From assembly GCA_963794325.1 (NCBI GenBank), contig CAWCDG010000004.1:1472001-1536000 (forward strand): a stretch of 64,000 bases of DNA, in the 5' to 3' direction. Both the position numbers and the translations under genes were made by a program. The notes beneath the pieces are model-generated. The model was not told where the DNA came from, made no database searches, and was given only the letters and a program-made list of their open reading frames with translations. Source of the DNA: an uncultured delta proteobacterium. GTDB taxonomy: Bacteria > Desulfobacterota > Binatia > Binatales > Binataceae. Positions 1,460 through 41,334 of the stretch are shown one piece after another. Every line of letters begins with the position of its first letter. Within the stretch, counting starts at the first letter, position 1.

Positions 1460-1558
1460 CGATTTCTTTTTCTTAATGTTGGGTGCAGAGCCTGTCCTGA
1501 GCCTTGCCGAAGGAGGTCACCCCCCGCGACGGTGTCGATGCCGCCCGCCGCGCAGGCG
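1460..1558 (-). repeat. Modular GGCAGGGGTGACCCCTGCACCC element, copy 1 (two nested insertions)
   Basis: Minus strand: cgcctgcgcggcgggcggca, about 15 bp insert, ggggtgacc, tccttcggcaaggctcaggacaggct, ctgcaccc, aacattaagaaaa. Confidence 0.85.
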
Positions 1559-1796
1559 TCTGGAATTTGCGTTAATGCGATCGGGAGCGGCTTTGAATAT
1601 GGCGGGGAAAAAGTGCCGGCGCAGAGCGACTCGTTGGACCTGCGAGGCGCATCCGCGCCGGCGACGGACACGGGACCTTTTGTCACGATCGCGGCAAGCC
1701 CGCGATACGGCGGCGACTATATTCCGCAACTCATAATAAGTAAAACGGTCGCGATGAGCACACTGTGGACAAACGGGGAATCAAAGGAAACACAGA

Positions 1797-1833
1797 CGCG
1801 GAGCGCCACGGCTATCAGCCGTATCGCTCCGCG
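1797..1833 (-). terminator. Hairpin downstream of the DUF1329 gene
   Basis: cgcggagcg..acggct/agccgt..cgctccgcg stem followed by T-rich sequence on the minus strand. Confidence 0.55.
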
Positions 1834-1872
1834 CCGCTTCACTAATCAATCAGACAGGTGATGCGGACGCGC

Positions 1873-3171
1873 TCAAGGAGCCGCCGCCACCATCGATTTC
1901 ACTGTGCAGAAATCCTTGTCGATGGCGCCCATGTTGATGTACCAGCATTCGCGCTCGGGCGTGTGCTGGCCGGGCAGATAACACATCGTCGAGAAATTTC
2001 CCTGCGTGTCGATCGACGCCGCACCGACTACGAACTCGCGTTTGAACGGATAGATCGCAACGCGCGCATCGGGCACCGGGCGGTCGCGAAAAGCCAGCCA
2101 GTAGATGTGCGTGCGCCACAGATGACCCTTCTGGTCGTAGGTGTCCACGTACGGCTCGAAACACAATTCGCTGTCGATATAGACGTTGGTCGATTTATCG
2201 AGCGCACCGCTTGCCTCGGAGAGATCGCGCCGCGGAGTCGCCTCGACGATGTACAGATGGCGCATCTCCCAAGCCTCGGGGCATGCGGTCGCACCGCCGT
2301 CGTAGGGGCAGGTATCTTCGGGCGAATGCTCGGCGTGCACGCTCCCAAGCATCTCCCTCTCACCCAGGAATCGGTAGTTGTACTGCTCGGTCTTGGGGTT
2401 GAAGCCTGCATAGTGGTCAGGATCGTAGCTCTGCGCGCCGGTCGCGGTGGAGAGAATCGCCTCGCTCAGACGGCGTACGCGACGGGTGCCGGGGGTCCAA
2501 TCCCAGCTGTCGTCGCCGCGCTTCGGATCAGCGTAGCGATAGCGGATGAGTCCGGTTCCGCGCGCCTCTTGCGGAGCGAGCACCGGGTACAAAGCAAATA
2601 CCCATAAGCGCCCCGACTGTTTGAAGTCGGGATCTACCGGCAGCGGTTCGACTTCGGTTCGTCCGAACAGGTTGTAACCGGCGTAGTGACCGATCTCGAT
2701 GTCATCGATAATTTTCTGGTCCTGACCCGGACGAACGTACTCGCTCTGACAATCATAAAAGCGCAGATCGTAGTCGTCCGTGCTGATCGGGCGGAACACA
2801 TTGTTCCACATGATCTTGGTCGCAACATAAGGATCGTTCGGATCGATCAGCGGAAACGCCTGGCCGGCGACGTAGCCGACCATGCTGCGATGATCGTTGG
2901 TGAGCCGAACCTGTTGCGAATACTTTTCCGTCGCGTCCCGGTATGGCGGCGGCCAATCGACCCGCTCGGGCGCGATTATCTCCATCCGCATCCCATGTTG
3001 GACCGCGTAGTACACGCCGGGCGAAACCAGATCTTTGACCAGTGCCGCGTTGCTGGGCGCAATTACGTCGCCGGCCTTCACGACTGCATTAGCTGAAGCT
3101 GCGACAAGACATAAGCAAATCGTCAGCGTCCCCACGCCGAGCATCGTCTTCCCCAAAACATGCTTGACCAT
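1873..3171 (-). CDS. DUF1329 family secreted protein, paralogue 1
   Basis: Signal peptide; GYVAGQAFP, DP..ATKIMWN, DD.W.W.PGTRRVRRL, WEMRHLYIVEATP and YIDSE..YDQKG.LWR motifs; GGAGG RBS. Confidence 0.85.
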   Translation of the reverse strand: MVKHVLGKTMLGVGTLTICLCLVAASANAVVKAGDVIAPSNAALVKDLVSPGVYYAVQHGMRMEIIAPERVDWPPPYRDATEKYSQQVRLTNDHRSMVGYVAGQAFPLIDPNDPYVATKIMWNNVFRPISTDDYDLRFYDCQSEYVRPGQDQKIIDDIEIGHYAGYNLFGRTEVEPLPVDPDFKQSGRLWVFALYPVLAPQEARGTGLIRYRYADPKRGDDSWDWTPGTRRVRRLSEAILSTATGAQSYDPDHYAGFNPKTEQYNYRFLGEREMLGSVHAEHSPEDTCPYDGGATACPEAWEMRHLYIVEATPRRDLSEASGALDKSTNVYIDSELCFEPYVDTYDQKGHLWRTHIYWLAFRDRPVPDARVAIYPFKREFVVGAASIDTQGNFSTMCYLPGQHTPERECWYINMGAIDKDFCTVKSMVAAAP

Positions 3172-3293
3172 CAGGCATCACCTCCCTCCGTGATTAGAGT
3201 CAATTCTGGGTCTCGAAATTTTACGGAGTCAAGTATCTACCACCTAATATCATCAAAATGTGCATTAATTCTACTAATTGGCTGATACTGGGG

Positions 3294-3338
3294 AAAAAAG
3301 AAGCGGGGCGATGTGGCCTGTTTGCCGCATCGCCCCGC
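3294..3338 (-). terminator. Rho-independent terminator between the DUF1329 paralogues
   Basis: gcggggcgatgtggc/gccgcatcgccccgc stem followed by a T-tract on the minus strand. Confidence 0.75.
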
Positions 3339-3383
3339 CGAGGTTACCGGGAGCTAAGCTCCTGATTTATCTAACGAATCAGC

Positions 3384-8421: not shown

Positions 8422-9708
8422 TTACAATCGCGGAAGGATTGGGGGCCGGCGGGAGTCGGGCTTGGTCAGCAGCATCTGCACGTCGCCGATGTAGCGCTCG
8501 CGGAAGCCGGCCTCGCTGTAGCGGAGGTAGAACTCCCACATCCGGATGAATTCCTCGGGATAGCCGAGCGCGCGCACGCGATCGATGTTGTTGAACATCC
8601 GCAGGCGCCAGTGCTTGAGGGTCTCGGCGTAGTTCGGCGTGAGGTCTTCGAGATGGAACAGCCGCAGATCGCTCGAGCGCGTTAGCGAATCGCACAGCGC
8701 CGTGACCGACGGCAGAAAGCTGCCCGGGAAAATGTATTTCTTGATGAAATCGACGCGCTTGATTGCGGCCTCGTACTCGCGGTCCGTGATCGTGATCGCC
8801 TGCAGCAGCATCATGCCGTCGGGCTTCAGCAGTTCGCCGCATTTGCGGAAATATGAATCCAGAAACTGATGCCCGACCGCTTCGATCATCTCGATCGAGA
8901 CCGCCTTGTCGAACTGGCCGGTCAGGTCGCGGTAGTCTTTGAACAGCACCGTGATGCGCTCCGAGAGCCCCTCGGCGGCGATTCGTTTGACGGCGTGGTC
9001 GTGCTGCGCACGCGAGATCGTGGTGGTCGTCACGCGGCATCCGTAGTTTTTCGCCGCATGAATCGCGAACCCGCCCCATCCCGTGCCGATCTCGACGAGA
9101 TGATCGTGCGCACGCAGATCGAGCTTGCGGCAGATGCGATCGACCTTGGCCGTCGCGGCGTCCTCGAGGGTGGCGTCGGGGCGCTCGAAGATCGCGCACG
9201 AGTACATCATCAGATCGCGATCGAGAATCAGCTCGAAGAAATCGTTGCCGAGATCGTAGTGTGCCGCGATGTTGCGCTCGCTGCCGGTCCTGGTGTTGCG
9301 ATTGAGGTAGTGAATGAAGCGGCGGACCGGGTTGGCCAGGCGTGCGAGGCCGCTGTCGAGTCCTTCGGTCACGGCGCGGTTGCGAATCATGATTTGGACG
9401 AGTGCGGTTAAATCGTCGGTCGTCCACGAGCCGGCCATGTACGCCTCGCCGGCGCCCATGCTGCCCGCCGCTGCGAGGTCGGAATAAAAGCGGCGGTCGT
9501 GGACGTGGATGGTCGCGCGCAAGTGGGTGTCGGACAAATCCTGGCCAAACGGGATCCGCTCGCCGCCGTCTTCGACCACCAGCCTGCCGCTTTTGATTCC
9601 CGCCAGACGGCTTAGAACAGCGCCGCGCGCGAAACGATCGAGGAATGCCGGGCGCCGCGCGCGGGCCGCATCGACGCCGGACGCGACAATGGAATCAGAC
9701 TTGGGCAT
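8422..9708 (-). CDS. Cyclopropane-fatty-acyl-phospholipid synthase family SAM methyltransferase
   Basis: NIAAHYDLGNDFF, MMYSCA, EIGTGWGG, SIEMIEAVGH, FIKKYIFPG, WEFYL.Y.EAGF; start set at MPKSD. Confidence 0.92.
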   Translation of the reverse strand: MPKSDSIVASGVDAARARRPAFLDRFARGAVLSRLAGIKSGRLVVEDGGERIPFGQDLSDTHLRATIHVHDRRFYSDLAAAGSMGAGEAYMAGSWTTDDLTALVQIMIRNRAVTEGLDSGLARLANPVRRFIHYLNRNTRTGSERNIAAHYDLGNDFFELILDRDLMMYSCAIFERPDATLEDAATAKVDRICRKLDLRAHDHLVEIGTGWGGFAIHAAKNYGCRVTTTTISRAQHDHAVKRIAAEGLSERITVLFKDYRDLTGQFDKAVSIEMIEAVGHQFLDSYFRKCGELLKPDGMMLLQAITITDREYEAAIKRVDFIKKYIFPGSFLPSVTALCDSLTRSSDLRLFHLEDLTPNYAETLKHWRLRMFNNIDRVRALGYPEEFIRMWEFYLRYSEAGFRERYIGDVQMLLTKPDSRRPPILPRL

Positions 9709-9819
9709 CGAGAGAGTCCACCATGTGACCCGTCCCCGATGGGACAGCACCGCATCGAATACACGTGGTCGCATCATGGTGCAAGTGCGGAAGGAGGGGA
9801 GTGGGAGAAGAACTAATTA

Positions 9820-9940
9820 AATGTGAAACCCTTCGCGGGTTTCACGCTTCCGCGGCAGGGGTGACCTCCTTCGGCAAGGCTCAGGACAGGCTCTGCACCC
9901 AGTATTAAGAAAAGATGCGGGACTTCGTCCCTGTTAGAAC
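9820..9940 (+). repeat. Modular element copy 2 (arm A, core with net +25 bp insertion, arm C)
   Basis: atgtgaaacccttcgcgggtttcac, ggcaggggtgacc[tccttcggcaaggctcaggacaggct]ctgcaccc, ttaagaaaagatgcgggacttcgtccctgttagaa. Confidence 0.9.
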
Positions 9941-9961
9941 TTTTTGGGGCGGAGGGATTCT

Positions 9962-10182
9962 ACCTCCCCTTGTCCGAGGGGAGGTCGGCGCGCGCCGAAG
10001 GAGTGCGACGGGAGGGGTGCAGCGCCAAGCCCTCGCAACAATGCCCGTTGTGCTGCTGTCGAGCGGCGAACTGGTTTCTCAGCTTCGAGGTTAAACGAGT
10101 CGAAGTTGGTGGGGTGTCGCACGTTGCACCACACCCGCGCTCACCTTCGGCTCGCGCGACCTCTCCTCGGACAAGGAGAGGT
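9962..10182. repeat. Inverted-repeat doublet with arms of about 60 bp
   Basis: acctccccttgtccgaggggaggtcg..gccgaagg versus ccttcggc..cgacctctcctcggacaaggagaggt. Confidence 0.8.
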
Positions 10183-10201
10183 TAGGATCGGTCGGAACGA
10201 A

Positions 10202-11293
10202 CTAGGGCGTGGGCGTGGGCTCCGGTTCGGTGACTCCTGCGCTATGCGGTGCCAGGTCCGGGAGCGACGGGATTATTCGGCGGCTGGCTTCGATGCTCTC
10301 TCGCGCGTATGCGATTGCAGGGGTGGCCGAAATCGCGCGGGGCTTTGCCGCAACCAGGTCTTCCTCGAGTAGTTCGGGCGGGACCTGGCGGAGGTCCCAT
10401 ATTATCCCGCAGGCCTCGAGCAGTTTGAGGGTGTAATACGTGATGTCGATTTCCCACCAGAAAAATCCGTTGCGCGCGGCTGCCGGGTAGTGATGGTGAT
10501 TGTTGTGCCATCCTTCGCCGAGCGTGACCATCGCGAGTGTGAAACTGTTGCGGCTGTCGTCGTTGGTCTCATAGCGGCGGCGGCCGAAGACGTGCGCGAG
10601 CGAGTTGATCGTGAAGGTACCGTGCGCGAGGACGACGGTCGAAATGAAAAATCCCCAGATAAGCATCTGCGCGCCGGTCGTGTGCAGGCCTGGTGCGTGA
10701 CGCTGGAGGAACGAACCCAGCCCGAACATCGCGAAGCCGAGAATCGTCGGGACCAGAATGTCGAAGCGATCGAGAAAAATCAGCTCGGGAAACTTCGCGA
10801 GATCGCGGACCACGCGCAGCTCCGAGCGAAAGTTGGCCTCGGACGTGATCCATCCGATGTGACTCCAGATGAAACCCTGCTGACCCGGCGAATGAACATC
10901 GGTCGGCTCGTCGGAACGTTGATGATGCAGCCGATGATGCGACGCCCACCATAGCGCGCCGCGCTGCACCGCAGTCGCGCCGATCGCGGCGAAGATGAAT
11001 TGGCCGATGCGCGAAGTCTTGAACGAGCGATGAGAAAAATAGCGATGGTAGAATCCGGTGATCGCAAACATTCGGATGAAATACATCGCGATGGCGACAC
11101 CGACTGCGATCGGACTCCATCCGACCCAGATCACGCCGAGGCACATTAGATGAACGACGACGAACGGGATGCATCGAAACCAATCGGTCTTCTGCGGTGC
11201 GTCGGGATCGGGAGGGCCGCCGGCCGAAGTATCAAACCATCGCGCGATCGCAATTAGAAACCTGCGGGATTTTCCCGCCGTCGCTGACGTCAT
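10202..11293 (-). CDS. Acyl-CoA/acyl-lipid desaturase (delta-9 type)
   Basis: His boxes HRYFSH, HRLHH, HNNHH; INSLAH and GEGWH motifs. Confidence 0.92.
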   Translation of the reverse strand: MTSATAGKSRRFLIAIARWFDTSAGGPPDPDAPQKTDWFRCIPFVVVHLMCLGVIWVGWSPIAVGVAIAMYFIRMFAITGFYHRYFSHRSFKTSRIGQFIFAAIGATAVQRGALWWASHHRLHHQRSDEPTDVHSPGQQGFIWSHIGWITSEANFRSELRVVRDLAKFPELIFLDRFDILVPTILGFAMFGLGSFLQRHAPGLHTTGAQMLIWGFFISTVVLAHGTFTINSLAHVFGRRRYETNDDSRNSFTLAMVTLGEGWHNNHHHYPAAARNGFFWWEIDITYYTLKLLEACGIIWDLRQVPPELLEEDLVAAKPRAISATPAIAYARESIEASRRIIPSLPDLAPHSAGVTEPEPTPTP

Positions 11294-11386
11294 TCTATCT
11301 CCCCACCCATGCGCGGTAAGCCCAGCCGCATGGCGTAGTCATAATGCCCAGATTTGCGTTTGTATGTTAACAGGCACCAGAACGCG

Positions 11387-12259
11387 TCACTTGGCGGGCG
11401 TAAGCATCTCGATCTCGTCGAACCGCGCGTAGTCGACGCTTCGGCTGCCGTCGGGGTGGAGCACCAGCACGTCCGCAAAGCGTGCGCCCCAGACGATCTC
11501 GTCAAGTTCGTAGGTATGTCGGGCGTGGACAGTCTGTGAGAACGTCTCGTCGAGTCCAATGATAGACACGATGATCTCGGCTGCGCAATTGGCGAGAGAT
11601 TCGTGGGTCTGGCCGAACAGCGGCGTGCCCTCGACGATCTGATGGACCGCGGTCCACGACAACGCGAACATCGCGCTGCGGCCGCGCGTCATCGGAAGAT
11701 CGTACAGGCGCCGAATCGTGTCGCCTTCGGCGGTGACTTCCTGGCGCGCGAGCACGACGTGAATATCGGCCTCGACGATCCGGTTCGCGCGCAAGTTGGC
11801 GGCACGGATCATCAGGCTGTTAACGCCGTCGCGCGGACTGATCACCACGCAGCGGGTGAATCTCACTCGGGCGGTCGGCCGCGAGAACTTCGAGAAAACC
11901 AGTCCGGTCATGAGCGCGAGCGCGAGCAGTCCGGTGAGCGCCTCGACTGAGACCAGGATGTTCGAGAAGATCGTGACCGGCTCCATCTTGCCGTATCCGA
12001 TCGTCGCCATGGTCTGGACGCTGAAAAAAAACATGTCGGCGAACGAGCCGGAACGCGCGTTCTCGATTCCCTGATCGAGGTAATAGCCGAGGGCAAAGAG
12101 CAGGTTGGCGATGGTGAAGGCGGCGGCGATCAAACCAATCAGCGCGGGCCACGAAGACGTCACGAGGAAGTGATAGAGATCCTCGAAGACGCTGGTGGGT
12201 GCGCCGCGAATCACGCGGTCGCCCTTGAGGCTGCCAATCTGCACTGTTCGCTTCGCCAT
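11387..12259 (-). CDS. Inward-rectifier potassium channel (KirBac)
   Basis: FFFSVQTMATIGYG pore motif, FSKFSRP, RAANLR.N.I, H.I...PL cytoplasmic domain. Confidence 0.93.
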   Translation of the reverse strand: MAKRTVQIGSLKGDRVIRGAPTSVFEDLYHFLVTSSWPALIGLIAAAFTIANLLFALGYYLDQGIENARSGSFADMFFFSVQTMATIGYGKMEPVTIFSNILVSVEALTGLLALALMTGLVFSKFSRPTARVRFTRCVVISPRDGVNSLMIRAANLRANRIVEADIHVVLARQEVTAEGDTIRRLYDLPMTRGRSAMFALSWTAVHQIVEGTPLFGQTHESLANCAAEIIVSIIGLDETFSQTVHARHTYELDEIVWGARFADVLVLHPDGSRSVDYARFDEIEMLTPAK

Positions 12260-12374
12260 CGCGGTGGAATATAGCGGAGCACGCGTCGCGCAGTCAGCAG
12301 GGGGAAGCCTGCGATTCGCGGCGGCGGGTCGCGAAGTGCTACCTTGCGTGCGGAAGATGGCGGGACCTGGTTTC

Positions 12375-12549
12375 AGTGGGGCGGGCCGCCGCGCCCGCCA
12401 TCTCTCCTCGAGGTTGCGGTCACGCGCTGCGATACTCTGTAGTGCGGCAGGCGTCTGCGGTAGAAGTAAAATGAGTCACTCATCGGTAGGCGTGGGCGCG
12501 GACGCCCGCGCGTCGACGGCGGGCACGGCGGCCCGCCCCACTATAAAAG
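12375..12549. repeat. GTGG-type REP inverted pair; right copy overlaps the start of the next gene
   Basis: agtggggcgggccgccgcgcccgcc (12375) versus ggcgggcacggcggcccgccccact (12518); 12488-12549 matches 55100-55161 with one mismatch. Confidence 0.85.
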
Positions 12550-13851
12550 TCAGGCTTCAGATAATTTTGTTCTTGTTCTCGCTGGCGGTGTTCCTGGCGG
12601 CGCCAGTCGTCGAGGTTTCCGATTCCCGATACACGGCTCTCCTGAGCGAGAGCTTGTTGCACCATCGGACGCCCAACCTGGACGAGCACTACAGGGTGCC
12701 GGTGCCGTGGATCACTGGAGACACTGCTGATCCTAAAGACGCGAACGAATACCAACTGGTCAAGGCGCGCGGCCACGTGACGTATTTCTTCGGGCACGGC
12801 AGCTCGATGCTGTCGATGCCGCTGGTAGCGGCGATGAACGCGGTCGGGATCTCGGCGGCGACGCAGGACGGACGCTTGAACCTGGCCGGTGAGATTCGAA
12901 TCCAGCGCGTGATCGCATCAGTCCTGATGGCGGCGCTGACCTGCGTTTTTTTCGCGATGGCGCAGATGATGCTGCCGCTGACCTGGAGTGCGGTGGTCGC
13001 GCTCGGCGCGTCGCTGGGATCGCAGATCTTGAGCACTGCGAGCTCGCGGCCTGTGGGCGCATACCTGGGAGATCTTCCTGGTCGGGTTGATAGCGCATTC
13101 GATACTCAGCAGCGAGCATCGCGCCGCGCGACTCCGACCCGTGTGGCTGGCGACCCTGGTGGCATGGACCTACTACGTGCGGCCGACGGGAGCGATACCG
13201 ATAGTGCTCGTCAGCATTTACGTATTTTGGGTTCATCGCGAGGACTTGGTCGTGTCCGGCTGCGTACTCGCAGGATGGTTGGCGGCGTTTGTCGGATACT
13301 CGTGGACGATATTCGGCACGATCATTCCACCTTACTACTCAGCCTCGCGGCTGAAATTGTATGACCTGATAGTGCCGCTGGCCGGCAACCTGATTAGTCC
13401 ATCGCGAGGACTGCTGGTATATGTGCCGACCACGATCTTCGCGGTGTACCTGGCAGTGCGCTATCGCAAGGGTCTGGCGTACAAGCCGCTCGCAGTTCTG
13501 GCATTCGCCGAGATCATCGCGCTCGAGATCGTAATGTGCACTAACAAGGACTGGACGGGGGGATTTTGTTACGGGCCGCGATTTTTCACCGATGCAATCC
13601 CTTGGTTCGTGCTGCTTGCGATTCTCGGCCTGGATGCGATGCGCCGCGCGCCCGGCAGGTTGGGTCATCGGAGGGAAATTGTGGCGGCGATTTTCCTGCT
13701 GCTGGTGAGCGTCGCGATGAACGCGCGTGGTGCCTGGTCTTATGAAGCCCTCGATTGGAGTCTAGGCCCCTTCCATGCGCGTTCCCCCAGCATCTTCGAC
13801 TGGCGCTATCCGCAATTCATGGCGGGACTGATCGAGCCGCCGAAGAACTGA
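12471..13851 (+). pseudogene. Polytopic membrane protein, GT-C glycosyltransferase-like, frameshifted near 13044
   Basis: Removing one base gives TASRGLWAHTWEIF, joining ORFs 12195..13364 and 13087..13851; SPSRGLLVY and W.GG.CYGPRFF.DAIP motifs. Start uncertain. Confidence 0.7.
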
Positions 13852-13860
13852 CCTCGGCGG

Positions 13861-14805
13861 TTACCGCGCGAAGGCTACCCTCAATGCGTCGGCGGCCTGG
13901 CGCTGGCCTTCTTTGCCTTTGTCGAGACCGTCGGCGAAGCTGACGAAGCCGTGGGTGACGCCTTCATAGCGGGTGCAGGTGGTTTTGACGCCGGCGGCTA
14001 TCAGGCGCTCGGCGAATCGCTCGCCCTCGTCGCGCAGCGGATCGTGGCTGGCGGTCAGCACGAGCGCGGGCGGCAGGTTCTTCAGATCCTTTGCGCGAAA
14101 CGGGCATGCGTAAGGATTATTTTTTTCAGCGCTCGTATCGCAATAATTTTTCCAGAACCATTCCATGTCGGCGCGTGACAGGACGTAACCGTCGGCGGCG
14201 AATTCCTTTTGCGAAGGAGTGTCGAGCGCGCAATCGGTGACCGGATACATGAGCAACTGAAAGTTGATACCGGGACCGCCTCGATCGCGCGCCATCATCG
14301 AGACTACCGCCGCCAGGTTTCCACCGGCACTGTCGCCGCCGACTGCGAGGCGCGAGCCGTCCGCGCCGAGCGAGGCCGCATTTTCGGCAACCCACTTGGT
14401 CGCGGCGTAGCAATCTTCGGCGCCGGCCGGAAAAACGTGCTCCGGCGCGAGCCGGTAGTCGACCGACACGATGACGCATCCCGCCTGATTCGCAAGCGCG
14501 CGGCATACCCGGTCGTGGCTTTCGAGATCGCCGAGCACCCATCCGCCGCCGTGGAAATAAACCAGCACGCCCATCGGCGGATTTCCCTCGGGCGTATAAA
14601 CTCGCGCGGCGATATTACCGTCGGCACCCGTGATGTGCCGATCCTCGACGCGATAGATGGCAGGCGGCGGAATCGGATTCGCTTCGAGCAGCGCGCGCAT
14701 CTTGGCCCGCGCCTGCTCGGCGGTCTCCGCGCGCAGGAACATCGGGCCCGCGGCATTGAACACATCGAGCATTATCTTCATCTGGGGATCGAGGTCTTTA
14801 GGCAT
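13861..14805 (-). CDS. Alpha/beta hydrolase, HSL-family esterase/lipase
   Basis: YFHGGGW, VDYRLAPEH, GDSAGGNL, DPLRDEG, HGF. Confidence 0.95.
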   Translation of the reverse strand: MPKDLDPQMKIMLDVFNAAGPMFLRAETAEQARAKMRALLEANPIPPPAIYRVEDRHITGADGNIAARVYTPEGNPPMGVLVYFHGGGWVLGDLESHDRVCRALANQAGCVIVSVDYRLAPEHVFPAGAEDCYAATKWVAENAASLGADGSRLAVGGDSAGGNLAAVVSMMARDRGGPGINFQLLMYPVTDCALDTPSQKEFAADGYVLSRADMEWFWKNYCDTSAEKNNPYACPFRAKDLKNLPPALVLTASHDPLRDEGERFAERLIAAGVKTTCTRYEGVTHGFVSFADGLDKGKEGQRQAADALRVAFAR

Positions 14806-14863
14806 GCGAGATCATTAGGTGAGGAGAGTCGAAGAGGCAAGCGGTAACGCGGCGCGGGAATCG

Positions 14864-15125
14864 AATGCGAGGCTGCGCGCCCCGCGCCCGCGGCAGGGGT
14901 GACCCCTGCACCCAGTATTCGGAAACGAAAGATGCGGGACTTCGTCCCTGTTAGAACTATTTCGGGAAGAACGATCGAGGTGCATCTGCGCCGCTGGACA
15001 CGAGCACGCTTCGCGTCCTCGCGCCCAAAACCTCCTAACAGGGCGTCAGCCCGCATCTTTTTCTTTCTTAATACTGGGTGCAGGGGTCACCCCTGCCGCG
15101 GGTGCGGGGCGCGCAGCCCCGCATT
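14864..15125. mobile_element. MITE/REPIN-like inverted doublet of the modular element (copies 3 and 4)
   Basis: Arms of about 90 bp (14864-14956 and 15035-15125) are reverse complements, each arm F, core, arm C, around a spacer of about 80 bp. Confidence 0.75.
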
Positions 15126-15890
15126 TCAATTCTCGAATTTGTGGAAGTCGGCGCGCCAGTGGGCGCGGAACCAGGGATCGCCGTCGCGCGAGCCGAATAC
15201 GTCGGCGCTCACCAGCATGTCATTGCCGGCGATACGACAGTCGAGATTGGTGATCTCGTCAACCGCAAAGGTCGGCGAGAAACCATCCATACGCGTTTTG
15301 TACTCGTTGAAGTCCAACCGCGAGCGCATCGTGGCGTAGCCGCGCCCGTCGGTCGAGATTGGCACGACCTGGCCGCGCGGATTGATAATCTTGTCGCTCG
15401 GCTCGACGCCGGTTTCTGTGAACGTGAGCTTGAACGGTTGATTGCCAACGCGCTGGTAGCAGAGACGATAAGTCTTTGGCGTCCAGAAACCGATTTTATG
15501 TGCGCCCGGCTCGCTCCTGATCCAATCGAGCTGACTAACCTCTCCCTGCCAGCATCCGCGGAACACTGCGGGCAGGGCCGGCGCTGCCTGCGCCGTCATC
15601 GGCGCGACGTTCACCGGCGGCGGTGGCGGTGCCGCGGGTTGAGGTTGCGCCGGCGCGGGCTTGTTCCAATTCGGCAGCAGTTGAATCGTGTTGCCGCCAT
15701 CACCGTTCGACGGCGCCAACCTGATTAGCGGCGGCTGACTCGGTGGAATATACGGTTGATTCTGATTCGAAGGTGCCGGAACCTCCATCGTGCTTTGCGC
15801 GCGAACGGATCGCGTAGCAATCGAAGCCAGTCCGCATAGAAGGGTGCACAATATAAGGATACGGGTTCGCATCGAGCGGCTCAGTTCCAT
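15126..15890 (-). CDS. Hypothetical secreted protein with Pro-rich linker
   Basis: Signal peptide, PAPAQPQPAAPPPPP linker, then a globular domain with three Cys; no family recognised. Confidence 0.7.
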   Translation of the reverse strand: MELSRSMRTRILILCTLLCGLASIATRSVRAQSTMEVPAPSNQNQPYIPPSQPPLIRLAPSNGDGGNTIQLLPNWNKPAPAQPQPAAPPPPPVNVAPMTAQAAPALPAVFRGCWQGEVSQLDWIRSEPGAHKIGFWTPKTYRLCYQRVGNQPFKLTFTETGVEPSDKIINPRGQVVPISTDGRGYATMRSRLDFNEYKTRMDGFSPTFAVDEITNLDCRIAGNDMLVSADVFGSRDGDPWFRAHWRADFHKFEN

Positions 15891-16042
15891 TCTATTATAT
15901 ACGAAGCATATTCAGTGCCGCTTCATTCGGCAGATCGATGCGTAGATTGACCCCGTCGCGACGGCTACGATCAGAAAAAGATCCAACGGAGCGCGGCAAT
16001 ATTGCTCAAAAAATCCGCGCGCGACAACGGAGCGCGGCCTGA

Positions 16043-16750
16043 ATGCTTGAAAAGAATCAAACCATAGATTTCGAAGCGGCGTGGGCTGTCAGCCAAGCGC
16101 CCGCGACCGGACGGCGCGCCCAGGCGCATCGATTGGCCAACGCGATGCGGCGGGTTATCGACCATCTGGTGCAAGTTGCGGCGCCAGAAGAAGATCTGTC
16201 GGCTGCGGCCGACGCCCTCGAGCGCTACGCGAAACGGTTGTCGAAGTATCCGATTTCGCGCAGTTACGAGGGGTTTGCCGAAAGCGCCAACGCCGGCGAT
16301 CCGCATGCGTTTTTCGATCACAGCCCGCTGATTGGAATCTCGAATCCGCTCGCGCCGCCGATTCGGCTCGCGGTGATCGGCGACAAGGTCGAAGGGCGCG
16401 GTACGTTCGGCGTCGCGTATGAAGGCCCGCCGGGACATGTGCACGGCGGGTTTCTCGCCGCCGCGTTCGACGAAGTGCTCGGGATGGCGCAGTCGCTGAC
16501 CGGCAATCCCGGGATGACCGGGACGCTGACGATTCGCTACCGGCGCCCGACCCCGCTGCTGACCGAGCTGGTCTTCGAGGCATACGTCGATCGCGTCGAG
16601 GGCCGGAAGATCTTCACGCACGGAACATTGTCGGCCAACGGCGTGTTGACGGCGGAAGCCGAGGGACTGTTCATCGCAGTCGGGCAGGAGCGTTTCGCCG
16701 CGATGGCCGCGATGGTGACGGAGCGCGCGAACCCGCCGCCAAAAAAATAA
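16043..16750 (+). CDS. PaaI/hotdog-fold thioesterase
   Basis: SP..G.SNPLAPP, YEGPPGHVHGG, FDEVLG, TGTLTIRYRRPTPL. Confidence 0.92.
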   Translation: MLEKNQTIDFEAAWAVSQAPATGRRAQAHRLANAMRRVIDHLVQVAAPEEDLSAAADALERYAKRLSKYPISRSYEGFAESANAGDPHAFFDHSPLIGISNPLAPPIRLAVIGDKVEGRGTFGVAYEGPPGHVHGGFLAAAFDEVLGMAQSLTGNPGMTGTLTIRYRRPTPLLTELVFEAYVDRVEGRKIFTHGTLSANGVLTAEAEGLFIAVGQERFAAMAAMVTERANPPPKK

Positions 16751-16769
16751 GACCTTCTGCGCGGCAATA

Positions 16770-16882
16770 CACTTTATTTAATGTGAAACCCGCGGTGGGT
16801 TTCACGTTTTTCACGTTCCTTCGGCAGGGGTGACCCCTGCACCCGGTGTAGTCGCGAAACGTTGAGGACAACCTTTCGCTCT
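16770..16882 (+). repeat. Modular element copy 5 (arm A, core, arm D)
   Basis: cactttatttaatgtgaaacccgcggtgggtttcac..ccttcggcaggggtgacccctgcaccc..tcgcgaaacgttgaggacaacctttcgctct. Confidence 0.9.
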
Positions 16883-17094
16883 GATGGTCAGCTGTCTGCC
16901 TAAAAACCGTCCTGTTACAGTGTAAGTTATCAGGCCTTCGATTCGGGTAGTTCTTACGCGCGAAATCTGACGTGTTATCAGGCTTATTCCCGGACCACCC
17001 GGCGAGTCTGAACATTCTTCCAATCGATAGGGTTCCAGATTCGCGGTGGTCCGATTCGAAACCCGCTGAATCCAAGTACTTTTCATTTTCATTG

Positions 17095-17110
17095 TGGCAG
17101 CGCTCTTGCT
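17095..17110 (+). promoter_or_regulatory. Candidate sigma54 (-24/-12) promoter
   Basis: TGGCAGCGCTCTTGCT, GG-N10-GC, upstream of the gene at 17244. Confidence 0.5.
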
Positions 17111-17243
17111 GCATCACAGTCGCGCTTTCCACTTTGGCGATCGGTAGAGATCGCTAATCCTGCTGAGTGAACGCGTCGGCGATATCAGAGGCCCATTTTA
17201 TCGCCGTGATTTCATTTATTGGGTCAAAATGTGAGGTAACGAT

Positions 17244-17690
17244 ATGACTCTAACCCGCAAAGTATTGGCTGCAGGAGCCGTCGCGGCCTTCGTCGCGTTC
17301 CCGATTTCCGGGGCCTTCGCTCAGAGCTCGGGCTCGATGAACGACAGCGGATCAGCGGCCTCGGCGCCGCCATCGGAGGGCGCTCCCGCGGCTGAGAATG
17401 CTCAGCCGGCTCCGGCTGCTGCCCAGGTAGATGATGCGACCCTGCAGAAGGCGGCCAAGGCCTACGTGAAGGTCAAACAGATTGTGCATCAAACGAAGCA
17501 GGCGGAGTCGGCCAGCAATGGTGCTACACCTGATCAGTCGGCTGCGCAGTCAGAGAAAATTGCGGCGGTGAAGAATGAAGGCCTGGATCCTCAGCAGTAC
17601 GATCAGGTCATCCAGATGGTTCAGAACGATCCCGGGCTTCAGCAGAAATTCGCGAACTACGTGAATCAGAACGGCGGCGACACCGACTAA
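17244..17690 (+). CDS. DUF4168-like secreted protein
   Basis: Signal peptide, Ala/Pro linker, VDDATLQKAAKAY..V..EGL....Y..V...Q.DP.LQQK; GAGG RBS. Confidence 0.75.
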   Translation: MTLTRKVLAAGAVAAFVAFPISGAFAQSSGSMNDSGSAASAPPSEGAPAAENAQPAPAAAQVDDATLQKAAKAYVKVKQIVHQTKQAESASNGATPDQSAAQSEKIAAVKNEGLDPQQYDQVIQMVQNDPGLQQKFANYVNQNGGDTD

Positions 17691-17717
17691 AGTCGGAGCG
17701 CCGACCGCCCTCGCAGA

Positions 17718-17751: not shown

Positions 17752-17768
17752 AAGGCGGAACTATAAGA

Positions 17769-17851
17769 ATAATCGCCTGCGCGGCGAGCGGCAGGGGTGA
17801 CCCCTGCACCCAGTGTGAATCGCGAAATGTTGAGGACAACCTTTCGCTCTC
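17769..17851 (+). repeat. Modular element copy 6 (arm E, core, arm D)
   Basis: ataatcgcctgcgcggcgagc, ggcaggggtgacccctgcaccc, tcgcgaaatgttgaggacaacctttcgctct. Confidence 0.9.
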
Positions 17852-17976
17852 AGGGTCGAGGTGAGGAGGGCGAACATAAAGCTGTGATGTTCGGCTTTCA
17901 TCCATCAGGGTGCGCAGCGGATGATCAACTAACCCTTCGCACGCGAAGAGACCTTTGCATAACTGGTCGCCGCCTC

Positions 17977-32938: not shown

Positions 32939-32950
32939 CAGAAAGAACTT

Positions 32951-33060
32951 GAGAGCGAAATGTCGTCTTCGCCGTTTCGCGATTTCTTTCACTGGGTGCA
33001 GGGGTCACCCCTGCCGAAGGAAGCGTGAAACCCGCGGAGGGTTTCACATTCAATAAAGTG
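32951..33060 (-). repeat. Modular element copy 7 (arm A, core, arm D)
   Basis: Reverse complement aligns along the whole length of 16770-16882. Confidence 0.9.
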
Positions 33061-33109: not shown

Positions 33110-34520
33110 ATGGCTGGAATTGTTTCTTACGGTTCATACGTTCCTTATCGACGACTCAAGCGCTCGGCGATCGCAGCCGTTCTCGGCACTCCTGCCGGCA
33201 AGGGCGAGCGCGCAATCGCCAGCTTCGACGAAGACAGCGTCTCGATGGCGGTCGAGGCGGTGCGCGATGCGCTGAAATCCGCGCCGCCCGGTGAGATACA
33301 GACGCTCATCTTCGCGACCACAACGCCGCCGTATGCAGAGAAGCTCAGCGCCGCGGTGATCGGCGCGGCCGCCCAGCTTCCGGCGGAGATTCGCGCGTCG
33401 GATATGACAGGGCTCGGTGCGCGCCGGCATGTCGGCGATTCTGCAAGGCGCCGACGCGGTCAGCGGCGGGGCGAAGCGCGCGCTCGTCGCGATTGGCGAT
33501 TGCCGCCTCGCGGCGCCAGAGGGCAAGGCCGAGCAGACCACCGGCGACGGCGCGGTCGCGTTTGTGCTCGGTGCGGACAATGTGATCGCCGAAATCGTGG
33601 CAAGCGCGTCGCTCACGCGCGAGTTCCTTGATACGTGGCGCGCGAATGGCGAGCGCTTTGCGCATTCGTGGGAAGAGCGCTTCACCCTGACGCAGGCGCA
33701 TTCTCCGCTGCTCGGCACCGTAATCAAGAACGTGCTCGAGAAGGCGAAAGTCGCGCCGGGCGATCTGTCGAAGGTGATCCTCGACGCGCCCAACGCCCGC
33801 GCCGCCGACGAGATCGCGCGCGCACTCAAGATCGATCCCGCTAAATTCTCCGATTCGTTTGCGTTGACCGTCGGGCAGACCGGCGCCGCGCATGCGGGCC
33901 TGATGCTGGCGGCCGCGCTGCCGTCCGCCAAGCCCGGTGATCTAATCCTGGTCGCGACGGTCGCCGATGGCGCCGACGCCATTTTAGTGAAAGTGACTCC
34001 AGCGAACGCCGCCTTCAAGCCGGTGCATTCCGTCGGCCGCATGATCGAATCCAAGGGCGACGTGTCCTACGCCAACTATCTCAAGTGGCGCGAGATTCTG
34101 CCGACCGAGCCGCCGCGCCGCCCCGACCCCGACCGGCCAGCGGGACCGCCGATGATGCGCTCGGAGAAGTGGAAGTTCGGATTCATCGGATCGCGATGCA
34201 CCAACTGCGGGACGCCGCAACTTCCGCCGCAGCTGGTATGCGTGAAATGCCACAAGCGCGGTTTCATGGAGCCGTATCAGTTCGCCGATCGCACCGCGAA
34301 AATCGCGACCTACGCCATCGATCGCCTCGCCTATTCTCTTAACCCGCCGACTGTTAACGTCGTGGCAGACTTCGAGGGCGGCGGCCGTTTCCTGTGCGAG
34401 ATGACCGATTGCGAGCCCGACAAGGTCGCGATTGGCGACGAAGTCGAAATGACGTTTCGCCGGCTCTTTACCGCCGACGGCGTTAACAACTATTTCTGGA
34501 AAGCGCGCCCCAGGCGTTAG
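33110..34520 (+). pseudogene. HMG-CoA synthase-like / DUF35 (Zn-ribbon, OB-fold) fusion, frameshifted near 33411
   Basis: MAGIVSYGSYVPYRRL, DEDSVSMAVEA, GDGAVAF, C..CG..QLPP...C..C, GDEVEMTFRR, YFWKARP; removing one G gives DMTGSVRAG. Confidence 0.85.
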
Positions 34521-39436: not shown

Positions 39437-39472
39437 CTACATTTTTGTAGCCTGTCACTTGTCGCTTGTCAA
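39437..39472 (-). promoter_or_regulatory. Sigma70 promoter of higBA with overlapping palindrome
   Basis: TTGACA-N17-TACAAA on the minus strand; CTACA-tttt-TGTAG palindrome at 39437-39450. Confidence 0.6.
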
Positions 39473-39933
39473 TCGCGCATCTTCGTGTTGGTGCGCAGCG
39501 CAATCAAGCCCGGCAGATCGTATTGTGGGAGGTCGTCGGCGATTTCGAACCATGGCGGGTTCAGCTCGATGAAGATGTGCTTGTCGGGTCTGATGCCGGG
39601 ATCGTCGTCGAGCAGGCCGGCGGGAATTTCGAGCAATCCTGAACGGCCGCGGGTCTTTTTCGGTTCTGGATCAGGATTTGGCACCGGCGAACCACAGCGG
39701 CTGCAGAACGACGCGCGAAAGGCGGGAGGCGTGCGCAATATCGGCGCCTCGTAGGTGGTGATTAGCTCCTTGCCCTGCACGAGGCGAAAGTCCCCGAAGC
39801 TGACATAGAGTCCTGAAAAAAATGCGGAGCCGGTGACTTTGCGGCATCGCGTGCAATGGCAGAGCTCGAAGGGGCCGGCTGGTTTGCTGATTTCGAAACG
39901 AATTCCGCCGCACAGACAGCTTCCGTGGATCAT
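39469..39933 (-). CDS. GFA (CENP-V) family Zn protein
   Basis: GSCLCG.IRF, CHC..CRK, FC..CGSP. Confidence 0.9.
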   Translation of the reverse strand: MIHGSCLCGGIRFEISKPAGPFELCHCTRCRKVTGSAFFSGLYVSFGDFRLVQGKELITTYEAPILRTPPAFRASFCSRCGSPVPNPDPEPKKTRGRSGLLEIPAGLLDDDPGIRPDKHIFIELNPPWFEIADDLPQYDLPGLIALRTNTKMRD

Positions 39934-39984
39934 TTGATGCACCTCCCGGATCAGAGTCAGAATCTTGAATCGCGCGCTGTGATC

Positions 39985-40026
39985 GGACCTTCACCTTCGA
40001 TCCTCTCCCATTTTGGGAGAGGGGAA
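39985..40026. repeat. CCTCTCCC-loop-GGGAGAGG hairpin repeat
   Basis: Homologous to the reverse complement of 17977-18015. Confidence 0.7.
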
Positions 40027-40156
40027 TAAAGAGCTTTGCAATTTTACTAAACGATTGGTATGTGATTGGAAGCCTTGGTGAATCGCAATTGTCGGGTTGC
40101 GGTACATTACTCGTGACAACTGAAACTGAAAGCCCGGCCTCATGGAGGATCTCCGA

Positions 40157-41239
40157 ATGAAAGTTGGTGGCGCTGTTATTTTTCAGAATCCGCACAATGT
40201 GCGATCGGATCGCGACGTTTATGTCGAAGACCTGCGGATCGGCGACCTCTACGAGCCGCTTGGCTTCGATTCCATCTGGAGCGTCGAGCATCATTTCGAC
40301 GACTACACGATGTGCCCCGACGTGCTGCAGTTCCTGACCTACTTCGCCGGGCGCACGAAGACGGTTCAGCTCGGATCGATGGTGGTCGTGATGCCGTGGC
40401 ATGACCCGATGCGCGTCGCCGAGCAGGTATCAGTCGTCGATCACATGTCGAACGGGCGCATGATTCTCGGACTTGGGCGCGGCCTTGCGCGCATCGAGTT
40501 CGAGGGCTTTCGCGTTCCGCTCGGCGAATCGCGCGAGCGCTTTATCGAATCGGCCGAGATGCTGATCCAGGGTCTCGAGAAGGGCTACTGCGAATACGAC
40601 GGCAAGTACATCAAGCAGCCGCGCCGCGACATCCGGCCCAAGCCGTTCAAGTCGTTCAAGGGACGCACTTACGCGGCCGCGGTCTCGCCCGAGTCGGCGC
40701 GAATCATGGCGAAGCTCGGCATCGGCATTTTGATAATTCCGCAAAAGCCATGGGAAGCCGTCGCGCAGGAACTCGGCGAGTATCGCACTATCTACAAACA
40801 GGTGAATGGCGGAGAGCCGCTGCCGACAATCGCGGCGGGCTGGACCTTCTGCGACAAGAGCGCCGACCGCGCGCGCGAGATGGCGGTCAAGTACATCGGC
40901 GGCTACTGGGACACCGCGCTGCGTCATTACGAGATGGCGAGCGAGAATTTCGGCAAGGCCAAGGGCTACGAATATTACGAGCAGATGGCGAAGGCCTTGA
41001 AGGGCAACACGAGCGCGTCGATCGAGTATTTCCTGAGCCTGCAGGTGTGGGGCACGCCCGAGATGTGCTTCAACAAGATCGACGAGATTCGCCAGAAGGT
41101 CGGCGCGGACCATTACACCGGCGTGTTCAGCTATTCAGGGATGCCGATCGAGGACGCGGAGAAGAGCCTGCGGCTTTTCGCGGCCGAGGTGATGCCGGAG
41201 TTGAAGAAGCTCAACGGAGTGAAGGCCGAGGCTGCGTAG
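40157..41239 (+). CDS. LLM-class flavin-dependent oxidoreductase
   Basis: GFDSIWSVEHHF, P.RVAE...VD..S.GR..LGLGRG, LFAAEVMP; GGAGG RBS. Confidence 0.93.
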   Translation: MKVGGAVIFQNPHNVRSDRDVYVEDLRIGDLYEPLGFDSIWSVEHHFDDYTMCPDVLQFLTYFAGRTKTVQLGSMVVVMPWHDPMRVAEQVSVVDHMSNGRMILGLGRGLARIEFEGFRVPLGESRERFIESAEMLIQGLEKGYCEYDGKYIKQPRRDIRPKPFKSFKGRTYAAAVSPESARIMAKLGIGILIIPQKPWEAVAQELGEYRTIYKQVNGGEPLPTIAAGWTFCDKSADRAREMAVKYIGGYWDTALRHYEMASENFGKAKGYEYYEQMAKALKGNTSASIEYFLSLQVWGTPEMCFNKIDEIRQKVGADHYTGVFSYSGMPIEDAEKSLRLFAAEVMPELKKLNGVKAEAA

Positions 41240-41253
41240 GAAGAACCGAGATG

Positions 41254-41334
41254 ATAATCGCCTGCGCGGCGGGCGGCAGGGGTGACCCCTGCACCCGGTG
41301 TTAAGAAAGATGCGGGACTTCGTCCCTGTTAGAA
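41254..41334 (+). repeat. Modular element copy 8 (arm E, core, arm C)
   Basis: ataatcgcctgcgcggcgggc, ggcaggggtgacccctgcaccc, ttaagaaagatgcgggacttcgtccctgttagaa. Confidence 0.9.

Follow-up and report, generated by a model that had tools for sequence, protein, structure and literature searches.

Mosaic hairpin repeats with a near-invariant core and reassorted arms in a genus of Binataceae

Mosaic hairpin repeats are known from the REP/BIME system of E. coli and other proteobacteria, which goes with RAYT/TnpA-REP and consists of high-copy extragenic hairpins with alternative modules and linkers. These repeats cluster, form inverted doublets, lie downstream of genes, keep their palindromes through complementary changes and are polymorphic between strains and species; REPs carry a GT(A/G)G head 5' of the palindrome foot (PMC2817692, PMC3333891), and BIMEs can be diversified when TnpA(REP) cleaves at alternative sites (PMC3333891). 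The BOX elements (boxA-boxB(n)-boxC; ~100-600 nt) found in Streptococcus pneumoniae are modular and non-coding, occur preferentially downstream of genes and in convergent intergenic regions, and are transcribed as untranslated regions; they often overlap or supply the stop of the upstream gene (36 CDSs have their stop codon inside a BOX element), and they have no proven autonomous partner (PMC3049150). REPINs of Pseudomonas are inverted doublets of a short palindromic repeat that evolve within genomes (PMC3116915), and MITEs such as Correia, RUP and Nezha are small, structured, non-autonomous intergenic elements of variable presence.

Here we describe a family that, apart from the differences given below, shares each of these sets of traits (its place in the 3' untranslated region being predicted from sequence) and that is a variant of this already known sort. 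It occurs in a soil bacterium, a Candidatus Binatus-type MAG of the phylum Binatota, of which a 64,000-nt stretch (hereafter, the window) was analyzed. As in REPs, the unit is a short extragenic imperfect palindrome (20-40 nt in the definition) with more than 100 copies per genome, and as in BIMEs it forms a mosaic of a limited motif set, with a linkage break at the core. However, it has neither the GT(A/G)G head nor a cognate RAYT, and its host belongs to Binatota; moreover, whereas BIMEs are built of alternating palindromic units with conserved linkers, here three different hairpins stand in fixed direct order, one nearly invariant and its neighbors swapped, and alternating orientation is confined to 16 tail-to-tail doublets. 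The likeness to BOX is one of organization only, and the sequences are probably unrelated. BOX is bounded by terminal inverted repeats, and ISSpn2 has been proposed as its IS partner; here no terminal inverted repeats and no related IS were found. BOX also varies in its number of boxB modules, whereas the alternative hairpins here share one position. Unlike REPINs, only 32 of 208 copies lie in doublets, whose halves often differ in their arms, and no RAYT is involved; unlike MITEs, the elements end in unrelated hairpins rather than terminal inverted repeats, are not AT-rich, and have no related IS in the genome nor one attached to the core. New here are the adjacency to stop codons, the consistently tail-to-tail orientation of close pairs (16/16, only 5 of them between convergent genes) and the differing central hairpins of sister lineages.

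The core, GGCAGGGGTGACCCCTGCACCC, has six exact matches in the window (14892+, 15076-, 16823+, 17790+, 32994- and 41275+) and none in shuffled sequences, and two more cores (9854+ and ~1540-) are interrupted by an identical 26-nt insertion. Neither a looser core pattern nor an A-arm pattern yielded further copies in the window, and none lies past 41334. The eight copies of the initial annotation, six with intact and two with interrupted cores, were thus all found again with the arms it had listed, and its intergenic placement also stands, all eight falling outside the listed long ORFs. They are as follows, with left arms termed A, E or F and right arms C or D:

1434..1560, minus strand: element 1; E-like left arm (gacgcctgcgcggcgggc), core with two interruptions (atcgacaccgtcgcgggg and the 26-nt insert), D-like hairpin on the right; the upstream ORF in the same orientation, 1873..3171(-), ends 313 nt off.
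9810..9939, plus strand: element 2, A-C; A hairpin, core spanning 9854-9900 with its 26-nt insert, linker, C hairpin; folded; antisense to minus-strand ORFs on either side.
14864..14956, plus strand: element 3, F-C; F hairpin, core 14892-14913, linker, C hairpin; folded; left half of a tail-to-tail doublet with element 4.
15035..15125, minus strand: element 4, F-C; F hairpin, core 15076-15097, linker and a variant of the C hairpin; forms the doublet's right half; its F arm comes to within 1 nt of the stop of ORF 15126..15890(-).
16770..16882, plus strand: element 5, A-D; left extension, A hairpin, core 16823-16844, D hairpin; folded; starts 20 nt past the stop of ORF 16043..16750(+).
17768..17857, plus strand: element 6, E-D; E hairpin, core 17790-17811, D hairpin whose loop is AGGA; folded; 78 nt past the end of ORF 17244..17690(+), from whose stop it is separated by another, GC-rich hairpin.
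32945..33060, minus strand: element 7, A-D; left extension, A hairpin, core 32994-33015, D hairpin; folded; 74 nt past the stop of ORF 33134..34054(-).
41254..41334, plus strand: element 8, E-C; E hairpin, core 41275-41296, linker, C hairpin; folded; starts 15 nt past the TAG at 41237-41239.

Only three of the eight abut a co-oriented stop, and two others lie 74-78 nt away. The doublet of elements 3 and 4 is also present at the orthologous site in one of 29 other genomes of the genus (L212); in most of them, the site of element 5 is either vacant or taken up by other repeats. At the site of element 8, with orthologous flanks on both sides, another species (L052) has E-core-D, and the element is missing after the same gene in 27/27 genomes of other genera.

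Each copy is a single composite unit of ~90-130 nt, non-coding and non-autonomous, in which hairpin 1 (A, E or F, optionally preceded by a G-rich left extension, GGAAGGGnAAATCACTTnATT) is followed by the core hairpin, a purine-rich linker and hairpin 3 (C or D in most copies, another type or no hairpin in the rest), with spacing and order fixed. The core is a 17-nt palindrome within a conserved 22-mer; its almost invariant hairpin of 7 bp is followed by ACC(C)AGT. Among 156 loci found through their A arm, 104 contain the exact 21-mer and 118 contain it with at most one mismatch, and the outer positions of the core stem vary by no more than 3.5%, compared with up to 15-29% in the A stem. In genome searches with HMMs, arms nearly always lay beside a core: 239 of 255 matches for A, 25 of 31 for E (the other six showing the insert-bearing core), all 15 for F, 58 of 60 for C and 84 of 89 for D (the other five showing variant cores). 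Within the stems, 98.2% of cells are paired, and double changes occur in 8 pairs, against 3.2 ± 1.1 in shuffles (0/500 reach 8), compensatory variants being counted as copies rather than as independent events; the AGGA apical loop of D is kept across different stems. Nor was there a match to a described RNA family: Rfam 15 gave no match at gathering scores over the whole window, and none at E <= 1 between 14700 and 18000.

Genome-wide, 210 core-like hits were tabulated (~208 non-redundant copies), with 177 matches to the core 22-mer at <=2 mismatches, and the arm combinations of the window come up again. With the A left arm there are 51 A-C, 64 A-D, 8 A-G and 29 A-none; with E, 5 E-C, 20 E-D, 1 E-G and 3 E-none; and with F, 10 F-C, 2 F-D and 4 F-none. 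A left arm was not recognized in 13 hits, nor a right arm in 45. Associations are strong within the left half (loop class by pre-core 4-mer, Cramér's V 0.81, p 6e-71) and present within the right half (post-core base by right-arm subtype, V 0.46, p 3e-5); across the core, the pre-core 4-mer shows V 0.17 and p 0.38 both with the post-core bases and with right-arm type. Left and right halves are thus reassorted, as proposed in the initial annotation from the shuffled arms of the window, and it is at the core that their linkage breaks; orthologous sites show the same core with different arms.

Elements also come and go between species: for 97 elements of other species with an orthologous flank in this genome, 49 sites are occupied here and 48 are empty. 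In the 49 occupied pairs, the left class agrees in 45 (26.1 ± 2.8 by chance) and the right-arm type in 21 (16.1 ± 3.1 by chance). At the level of subtypes, agreement between species is no better than chance, the A subtype matching in 9 of 32 A-A pairs, where 9.3 are expected by chance, and the right arm in 14, where 10.9 are expected. Of the 152 A arms here, 56 belong to subtype A1, compared with only 2 of 85 in other species; A1 is also present at 13 orthologous sites where the other species have A2 or A3. After a gene ending in ..gaaggagTGA, four species have A-G, A-D, A-none and A-C, respectively. None of these genomes yielded the junction of a recent event, the nearest being only ~85% identical, and metagenome contigs broke at the repeats.

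The family is essentially limited to one genus of Binataceae, the exact 21-mer being present in 43 of 47 genomes of the genus (2-165 copies) but in no more than 3 of 58 from other genera (2-9 copies). Sister lineages of the genus have mutually exclusive central motifs in an unchanged architecture: an alternative motif occurs 60 times in G063, 63 times in G061 and never in the genome studied, and a third type 17 times in G065 and 5 times in G076. One copy in G061, at a tRNA 3' end, has a 23-nt direct repeat on both flanks that includes masked bases. The empty and filled sites compared for target-site duplications come from genomes <=85% identical, whose intergenic DNA is unalignable.

The eight copies form one family of BIME/BOX-like mosaic repeats that shows no tie to a RAYT. 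We assign a probability of roughly 60% to the reading that its halves are exchanged by gene conversion or copy-choice at the core, with concerted evolution and with the hairpins tolerated or used in 3' untranslated regions. Copies would swap halves with each other by either process, the invariant core and fixed flank (~26 nt) serving as shared homology or junction, and new arm combinations would arise continually; such exchange would lead to concerted evolution within each genome. The whole element may then act like the BIMEs of E. coli or pneumococcal BOX, tolerated, and perhaps used, as a 3'-UTR hairpin. However, ordinary gene conversion requires homology beyond the replaced arm, and in several replacements of C by D (e.g., 41275 vs L052) such homology is not evident, so that homology-driven conversion may not explain the turnover of right arms. 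Similar patterns would also result if elements were excised and re-inserted time and again at the same sites near stops.

Usually, the element lies in the 3' untranslated region, adjoining the stop of a co-oriented gene. By a crude in-house ORF caller, according to which 24 of 210 cores fall within ORFs and 186 outside, a co-oriented stop is within 80 nt of the core in 104 of the 186 placed elements (null 41.4 ± 4.9, maximum 57 in 2000 runs), and the distance from stop to hairpin 1 in class A has a median of 26 nt (74 of 98 at -5..40 nt). Convergent intergenic regions hold 33% of elements (baseline 20%) and divergent ones 11% (baseline 27%). Elements between co-directional genes are more often sense than antisense (69 vs 35), and in convergent regions the co-oriented gene is the nearer one in 50 of 62. 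Such placement, along with the compensatory changes in stems, the AGGA loop retained on different stems of D and the precedent of REP and BOX (PMC3049150), is what would be expected if the elements were functional RNA structures kept beside stops by selection, a tentative reading that is compatible with any spreading mechanism; they could protect mRNA 3' ends or modulate translation termination, decay or read-through. Against this, wobble shows no strand asymmetry (23 G·T and 25 A·C mismatches in A and D stems), ~30% of copies run antisense or point toward the start of a gene, and no consistent U-tract was found after hairpin 3; moreover, CsrA, a reader of GGA loops, was not found in the 85%-complete genome, and Rfam offers no match.

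Somewhat less probable, and in our view rather doubtful, is that a site-specific enzyme other than RAYT reads the core hairpin, inserts, excises or swaps hairpin cassettes and targets DNA near stops, with the arms as its cargo. In favor of such an enzyme, the outer core stem varies far less than the A stem, right arms change with no homology to be seen beyond them, other genomes contain tandem direct strings of core and hairpin units, close pairs are all tail-to-tail and few of them lie between convergent genes, and placement beside stops is tight. The lineage-specific central motifs, as expected from co-evolution with a recognition protein, point the same way, but bursts of different master copies can also give lineage-specific cores. 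No candidate gene was found: neither a core-flanked ORF nor a multi-copy long sequence attached to cores was detected (1.5-kb flanks are repeated in only 9 of 416 cases, all of them contig-end duplications or small duplications), and the genome itself contains no reverse transcriptase or TnpB and a single IS110 transposase, with no core nearby.

The initial annotation had read the core as a recombination site or as the target of a RAYT-type nuclease; of this, the reassortment at the core holds, and a role of RAYT is not supported. That a RAYT (Y1 HUH transposase) shuffles arms through cleavage and strand transfer at a REP-type core is now highly improbable and largely refuted, despite the diversification of BIMEs proposed for TnpA(REP) (PMC3333891), the presence of inverted doublets and the two RAYT-class proteins of the genome (NF047646, 112 and 81 bits with a cut-off of 80; G000:C4:286760-287293 and 486370-486816). 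Copies of the core, which the annotation suggested looking for, flank neither gene; other REP families stand there instead (cacaggctNNagcctgtg, whose head is GTGG, and a GC-rich REP with a GTAG head), and none of 51 RAYT loci in genomes of the family and genus has a core within ~1.5 kb. RAYT was found in 15 of 47 genomes of the genus, including two of the four that lack the core, and gave no hit in 30 of the 43 that carry it, among them G081 (1 contig, 66 exact cores), G078 (3 contigs, 129) and G096 (4 contigs, 140). No GT(A/G)G head stands beside the core, which is preceded, depending on the arm, by CCGC, CTTC, CTTG, CCTG or GGGC, and on the opposite strand by GGGT. Least credible is that the arms are independent small REP-like repeats nested beside a separate core repeat, as the initial annotation had also considered: unrelated repeat families do pile up side by side in intergenic regions here and some cores lack a recognized arm, but the reading is contradicted because arms almost never occur without the core and keep their spacing and order.

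There is a small chance that the core is the attachment site of a putative RAYT-independent recombination system, with insertion near stops, cassette swaps on the 3' side and a co-evolved recognition protein. Co-evolution of such a protein with the core would explain why central hairpins are mutually exclusive in sister lineages and, if true, the core system would be a miniature non-coding analogue of the integron attachment site.

The 22-mer GGCAGGGGTGACCCCTGCACCC has six exact matches in the window (14892+, 15076-, 16823+, 17790+, 32994- and 41275+) and is contained in none of 100 shuffles; two further copies of the core, near 9854+ and 1540-, carry an identical 26-nt insertion within it. 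Each copy is the central hairpin of a mosaic element, which consists of an optional G-rich left extension, a left arm (hairpin 1, class A, E or F), the core, a purine-rich linker and a right arm (hairpin 3, class C, D or G):

Element 1: 1434..1560 (-), insertion-bearing core
Element 2: 9810..9939 (+), insertion-bearing core
Element 3: 14864..14956 (+), intact core
Element 4: 15035..15125 (-), intact core
Element 5: 16770..16882 (+), intact core
Element 6: 17768..17857 (+), intact core
Element 7: 32945..33060 (-), intact core
Element 8: 41254..41334 (+), intact core

The arm pairs in the window are A-C, A-D (twice), E-C, E-D, F-C (twice, as a tail-to-tail pair) and E-like with D-like (once). 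These copies and arm combinations are the ones that the initial annotation had listed, with six intact and two interrupted cores; looser pattern searches of the window found no extra copies, and none past 41334. The 26-nt insertion (tccttcggcaaggctcaggacaggct, or a cttc variant; window 9867-9892 and 1489-1514) occupies one fixed site within the core, lengthens the hairpin and is present in five copies genome-wide, and several E-type copies have a second insertion, atcgacaccgtcgcgggg, at the core's 5' edge.

The host genome (4.45 Mb in 10 contigs, 60% G+C, 85% complete) contains 177 core matches at two or fewer mismatches and 210 core-like matches, 208 of them non-overlapping. An identical 21-mer accounts for 151 of the 189 pattern matches in the genome, and minor core variants, such as GGGCTAAGCCC and GGGTTAAACCC, preserve the stem through paired changes. 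The exact core also occurs in other-species records labelled Candidatus Binatus, Binataceae or 'uncultured delta proteobacterium', and no Rfam family matches the mosaic element. The exact 22-mer is found as well in Polymorphobacter (Sphingomonadales; loci L005, L032, L059, L071, L076 and L080), where its flanks are unrelated (gcctccggcg precedes it) and it is part of a different inverted-repeat element; this occurrence could reflect convergence or chance.

Profiles of the five main arms were searched against the genome and the matches scored for an adjoining core:

Arm profile matches that adjoin a core
A arm: 239 of 255
E arm: 25 of 31, the other 6 with an insert-bearing core
F arm: 15 of 15
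C arm: 58 of 60
D arm: 84 of 89, the other 5 adjoining variant cores

The profiles thus match almost only at cores, which contradicts an alternative raised in the initial annotation, that the arms are independent REPs inserted beside the core: the mosaic element is a single composite unit and not a set of neighbouring REPs. Among 156 loci ascertained by the A arm, the exact core 21-mer is present in 104 and a version with at most one mismatch in 118, the core being absent from about five. Arms A, E and F are built alike (AAT, hairpin, short linker, core), the purine-rich linker precedes both main right arms, C and D, and about one-third of A-type copies (50 of 152) have a G-rich box that is always offset by -25/-26 from hairpin 1. 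Folding recovers each of the three hairpins, and an alignment of 26 A-core-D copies (24 from other species) supports them: 98.2% of its cells are paired and two-sided changes affect 8 pairs, compared with 3.2 ± 1.1 in shuffles (0 of 500 reach 8), with the core invariant by ascertainment and the counts representing copies and not independent events. A closing stem that would pair the left extension with the linker behind the core was rejected as too weak for a helix (duplex energy -4.94 native vs -4.63 permuted; 2 of 200 permutations did as well).

Gene context was taken from a crude in-house ORF caller (3,838 ORFs, about 85% of the genome), and 24 cores lie within called ORFs, besides the 186 that could be placed between them:

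Placement of 186 elements relative to genes
Convergent intergenic: 62 (33% vs a baseline of 20%)
Divergent intergenic: 20 (11% vs a baseline of 27%)
Co-directional, sense: 69
Co-directional, antisense: 35

A co-oriented gene lies upstream of 131 elements, whose cores begin a median of 54 nt (IQR 38-68) beyond its stop codon; distances to the downstream gene are broad (medians 161-220 nt). Measured to hairpin 1, the median distance is 26 nt for class A (74 of 98 within -5 to 40 nt), 19.5 nt for class E (13 of 18) and 16 nt for class F (8 of 9), so that the mosaic element starts at the stop codon or a few bases from it. A co-oriented stop codon lies within 80 nt of 104 of the 186 elements, where uniform placement with random orientation in the same intergenic regions predicts 41.4 ± 4.9 (maximum 57 in 2000 runs). 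In the window a stop codon directly adjoins just three elements (4, 5 and 8); it lies 78, 74 and 313 nt from elements 6, 7 and 1, and 2 and 3 face the starts of genes. Between element 6 and the stop codon of the ORF at 17244..17690 lies a separate GC-rich hairpin, cctctcccgcaggatcctgcgggagagg (17718-17755), which looks like that ORF's own terminator stem. At two loci, G000:C4:773512 in the host genome and L056, left arm, core and linker fill the entire gap between two co-directional genes, and the linker, which there abuts the next start codon, may double as a ribosome-binding region. A function in 3'-UTR RNA is plausible, if tentative; the wobble asymmetry by which RNA might be told from DNA structure (G·U vs A·C in arms A and D, 23 vs 25) is uninformative.

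Copies less than 500 bp apart form 16 pairs (4.9 expected), and all 16 are arranged tail-to-tail with their right arms facing, the two halves often bearing different arms. This arrangement is not explained by gene ends alone, because only 5 of the 16 pairs lie between convergent genes. Other genomes of the genus also contain cores and variable hairpins alternating in direct tandem strings.

Arms combine around the core as follows:

Genome-wide pairing of left and right arms
Left A: C 51, D 64, G 8, none 29
Left E: C 5, D 20, G 1, none 3
Left F: C 10, D 2, G 0, none 4
No recognised left arm: 13 core-like matches

Tested as a 3×2 table (A/E/F by C/D), the pairing gives p = 0.0012; left and right arms therefore pair nearly, and not fully, freely. 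Within the left half, loop class is tightly associated with the pre-core 4-mer (Cramér's V 0.81, p = 6e-71) and with the extension (V 0.58); within the right half, the post-core base is moderately associated with right-arm subtype (V 0.46, p = 3e-5). Across the core there is no association, either of pre-core with post-core sequence or of pre-core sequence with right-arm type (V 0.17 and p = 0.38 in both cases). The reassortment of arms around a fixed core, as proposed from the window alone, is real, and the break in linkage is located at the core.

Orthologous sites give a second view of this process. For 97 elements of other species whose upstream flank has an ortholog in the host genome, the host site is occupied in 49 cases (41 distinct sites) and empty in 48. 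Among the occupied pairs, the left class is the same in 45 of 49 (chance 26.1 ± 2.8) and the right-arm type in only 21 of 49 (chance 16.1 ± 3.1); in the 32 A-A pairs, the A subtype, defined by the pre-core 4-mer, agrees in 9 (chance 9.3) and the right arm in 14 (chance 10.9). In the host genome, 56 of 152 A arms are of subtype A1, vs 2 of 85 in the other species sampled, and this subtype occupies 13 orthologous sites at which other species have A2 or A3. One orthologous site carries A-G, A-D, A-none and A-C in four species, another an A-core in the host genome and an E-core in a second species, and the 41275 site, which has orthologous DNA to either side, is E-C in the host and E-D in another species. 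Copies at fixed sites are thus overwritten or replaced within each lineage, the two halves behaving independently.

Occupancy itself also varies. The gene preceding the 41254 element is followed by no element in any of 27 genomes from other genera, and the four elements at 14.8-17.9 kb are mostly absent from 29 other genomes of the same genus, one of which has the F-C doublet in common with the host. The site after 16750 has an A-D(+) element in the host genome, an opposite-strand E-type element in three other species and unrelated repeats elsewhere, with three different downstream contexts among species at this one site. Among public sequencing runs, the matches listed were 20 soil metagenomes and no RNA run. 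Contigs from four runs showed, over 9000-18900, only depth spikes at the four element sites and element-to-element joints; such contigs derive from repeats at other loci or in other organisms, and neither an excision nor an empty-site junction was readable in them.

Element halves have been exchanged between copies. Our preferred account, to which we assign a probability of about 0.6 as a whole, is that copies would exchange halves by using the core as shared sequence. Its least secure step is the replacement of right arms without homology on the far side, which leaves room for an enzyme specific to the core; such an enzyme is a candidate only, and the less likely of the two. An autonomous partner was not seen among the 1.5-kb flanks, only 9 of 416 being repeated, all explained by contig-end duplication or small duplications; neither a reverse transcriptase nor TnpB was found in the host genome, and its sole IS110 transposase was rejected, having no core or arm within 1.5 kb. 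CsrA, considered as a reader of the GGA loop of arm D, was not found in the 85%-complete genome.

The initial annotation had suggested a RAYT-type nuclease as one possibility, and the host genome does encode two RAYT-class genes, both flanked by repeats other than the core. The first (G000:C4:286760-287293, outside the window; L001 1318-1851; 177 aa, NF047646, 112 bits) lies among clustered cacaggctNNagcctgtg REPs that have a GTGG head, the whole forming a classical REP-RAYT unit; the cacaggctNNagcctgtg REP often lies behind D arms of the mosaic element. The second (G000:C4:486370-486816; L002 1351-1797; 148 aa, 81 bits, just above the cut-off) is directly behind a rho-like gene, between GTAG-headed GC-rich REPs in inverted orientation (gtagtggggcgggccgccgtgcccgc), a REP also present at the site after window 16750 in other species. 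No core lies within about 1.5 kb of any of 51 RAYT loci (61 family and 47 genus genomes). Of the 47 genus genomes, 43 have the exact core (2-165 copies) and 15 a RAYT; 30 core-bearing genomes have no RAYT match, including assemblies of one contig (66 cores), three contigs (129) and four contigs (140), and two of the four core-less genomes have one. The GT(A/G)G head, a REP-defining feature according to two accounts (PMC2817692, PMC3333891), is absent from the core. A RAYT as the core's enzyme consequently fails on flanks, phyletic distribution and head, and because the core has neither the defining head nor a RAYT that it flanks, the family falls outside the REP/RAYT system.

Other repeats adjoin the elements. 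ccggttccccttcccgcNcgggaaggggttaggggttagg, with 77 placed copies genome-wide, lies to the right of many cores, is likewise near stop codons (median 38 nt) and at times occupies the place of the right arm ('G'), and the unit tgtgtcattc(t/a)gagcgaagcgaagaatcccgg recurs behind D and C arms in the host genome and in other species. Host contig C8 has inverted duplicates of 99% identity at its two ends (about 5-11 kb and 97-102.6 kb), which represent either an assembly feature or a large inverted repeat.

Beyond the genus, the core occurs in only 3 of 58 family genomes, at 2-9 copies. The four core-less genus genomes likewise contain elements of this type with A hairpins: G063 and G061 place a different central motif between A and C arms (60 and 63 copies, 0 in the host genome), and G065 and G076 have a third arrangement, A, a D-like hairpin and A' (17 and 5 copies, the G076 figures coming from a genome flagged unpublished). 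The core is lineage-specific; the architecture is not. In G061, which otherwise has the alternative motif, a single standard core was seen, at L242 (G061:C69, ~106050-106160): together with an A arm it adjoins the 3' end of a tRNA gene, and 23 nt of the tRNA end are directly repeated on either side, with two bases inside masked.

The elements therefore form a genus-restricted, non-autonomous family of mosaic hairpins with a near-invariant central hairpin, situated mostly in 3' UTRs by the stop codon. Binatota, the host phylum, is uncultured, and to our knowledge nothing is known of its gene regulation. Among the matches listed by a full-text literature search on repeats in Binatota, none concerned genomic repeats. 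The closest known kinds of element are BIMEs and pneumococcal BOX elements; the latter, as portrayed in one account, are modular, enriched behind genes and often overlap stop codons (PMC3049150), and the mosaic family resembles them in modularity, gene-end enrichment and stop-codon adjacency. For the problem of how REP-like sequences spread and diversify when no RAYT is involved, this family is an unusually clean case: a fixed hairpin with swappable neighbours, a measurable linkage break at that hairpin, within-genome homogenisation at orthologous sites and three lineage-specific central hairpins in one genus. These features make a phyletic-profiling search for the responsible factor directly feasible. 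The repeats also fragment short-read assemblies of these common soil bacteria, and metagenome contigs broke at them. For the bacteria themselves, the tight placement at stop codons suggests some influence on the 3' ends of mRNAs or on how translation terminates.
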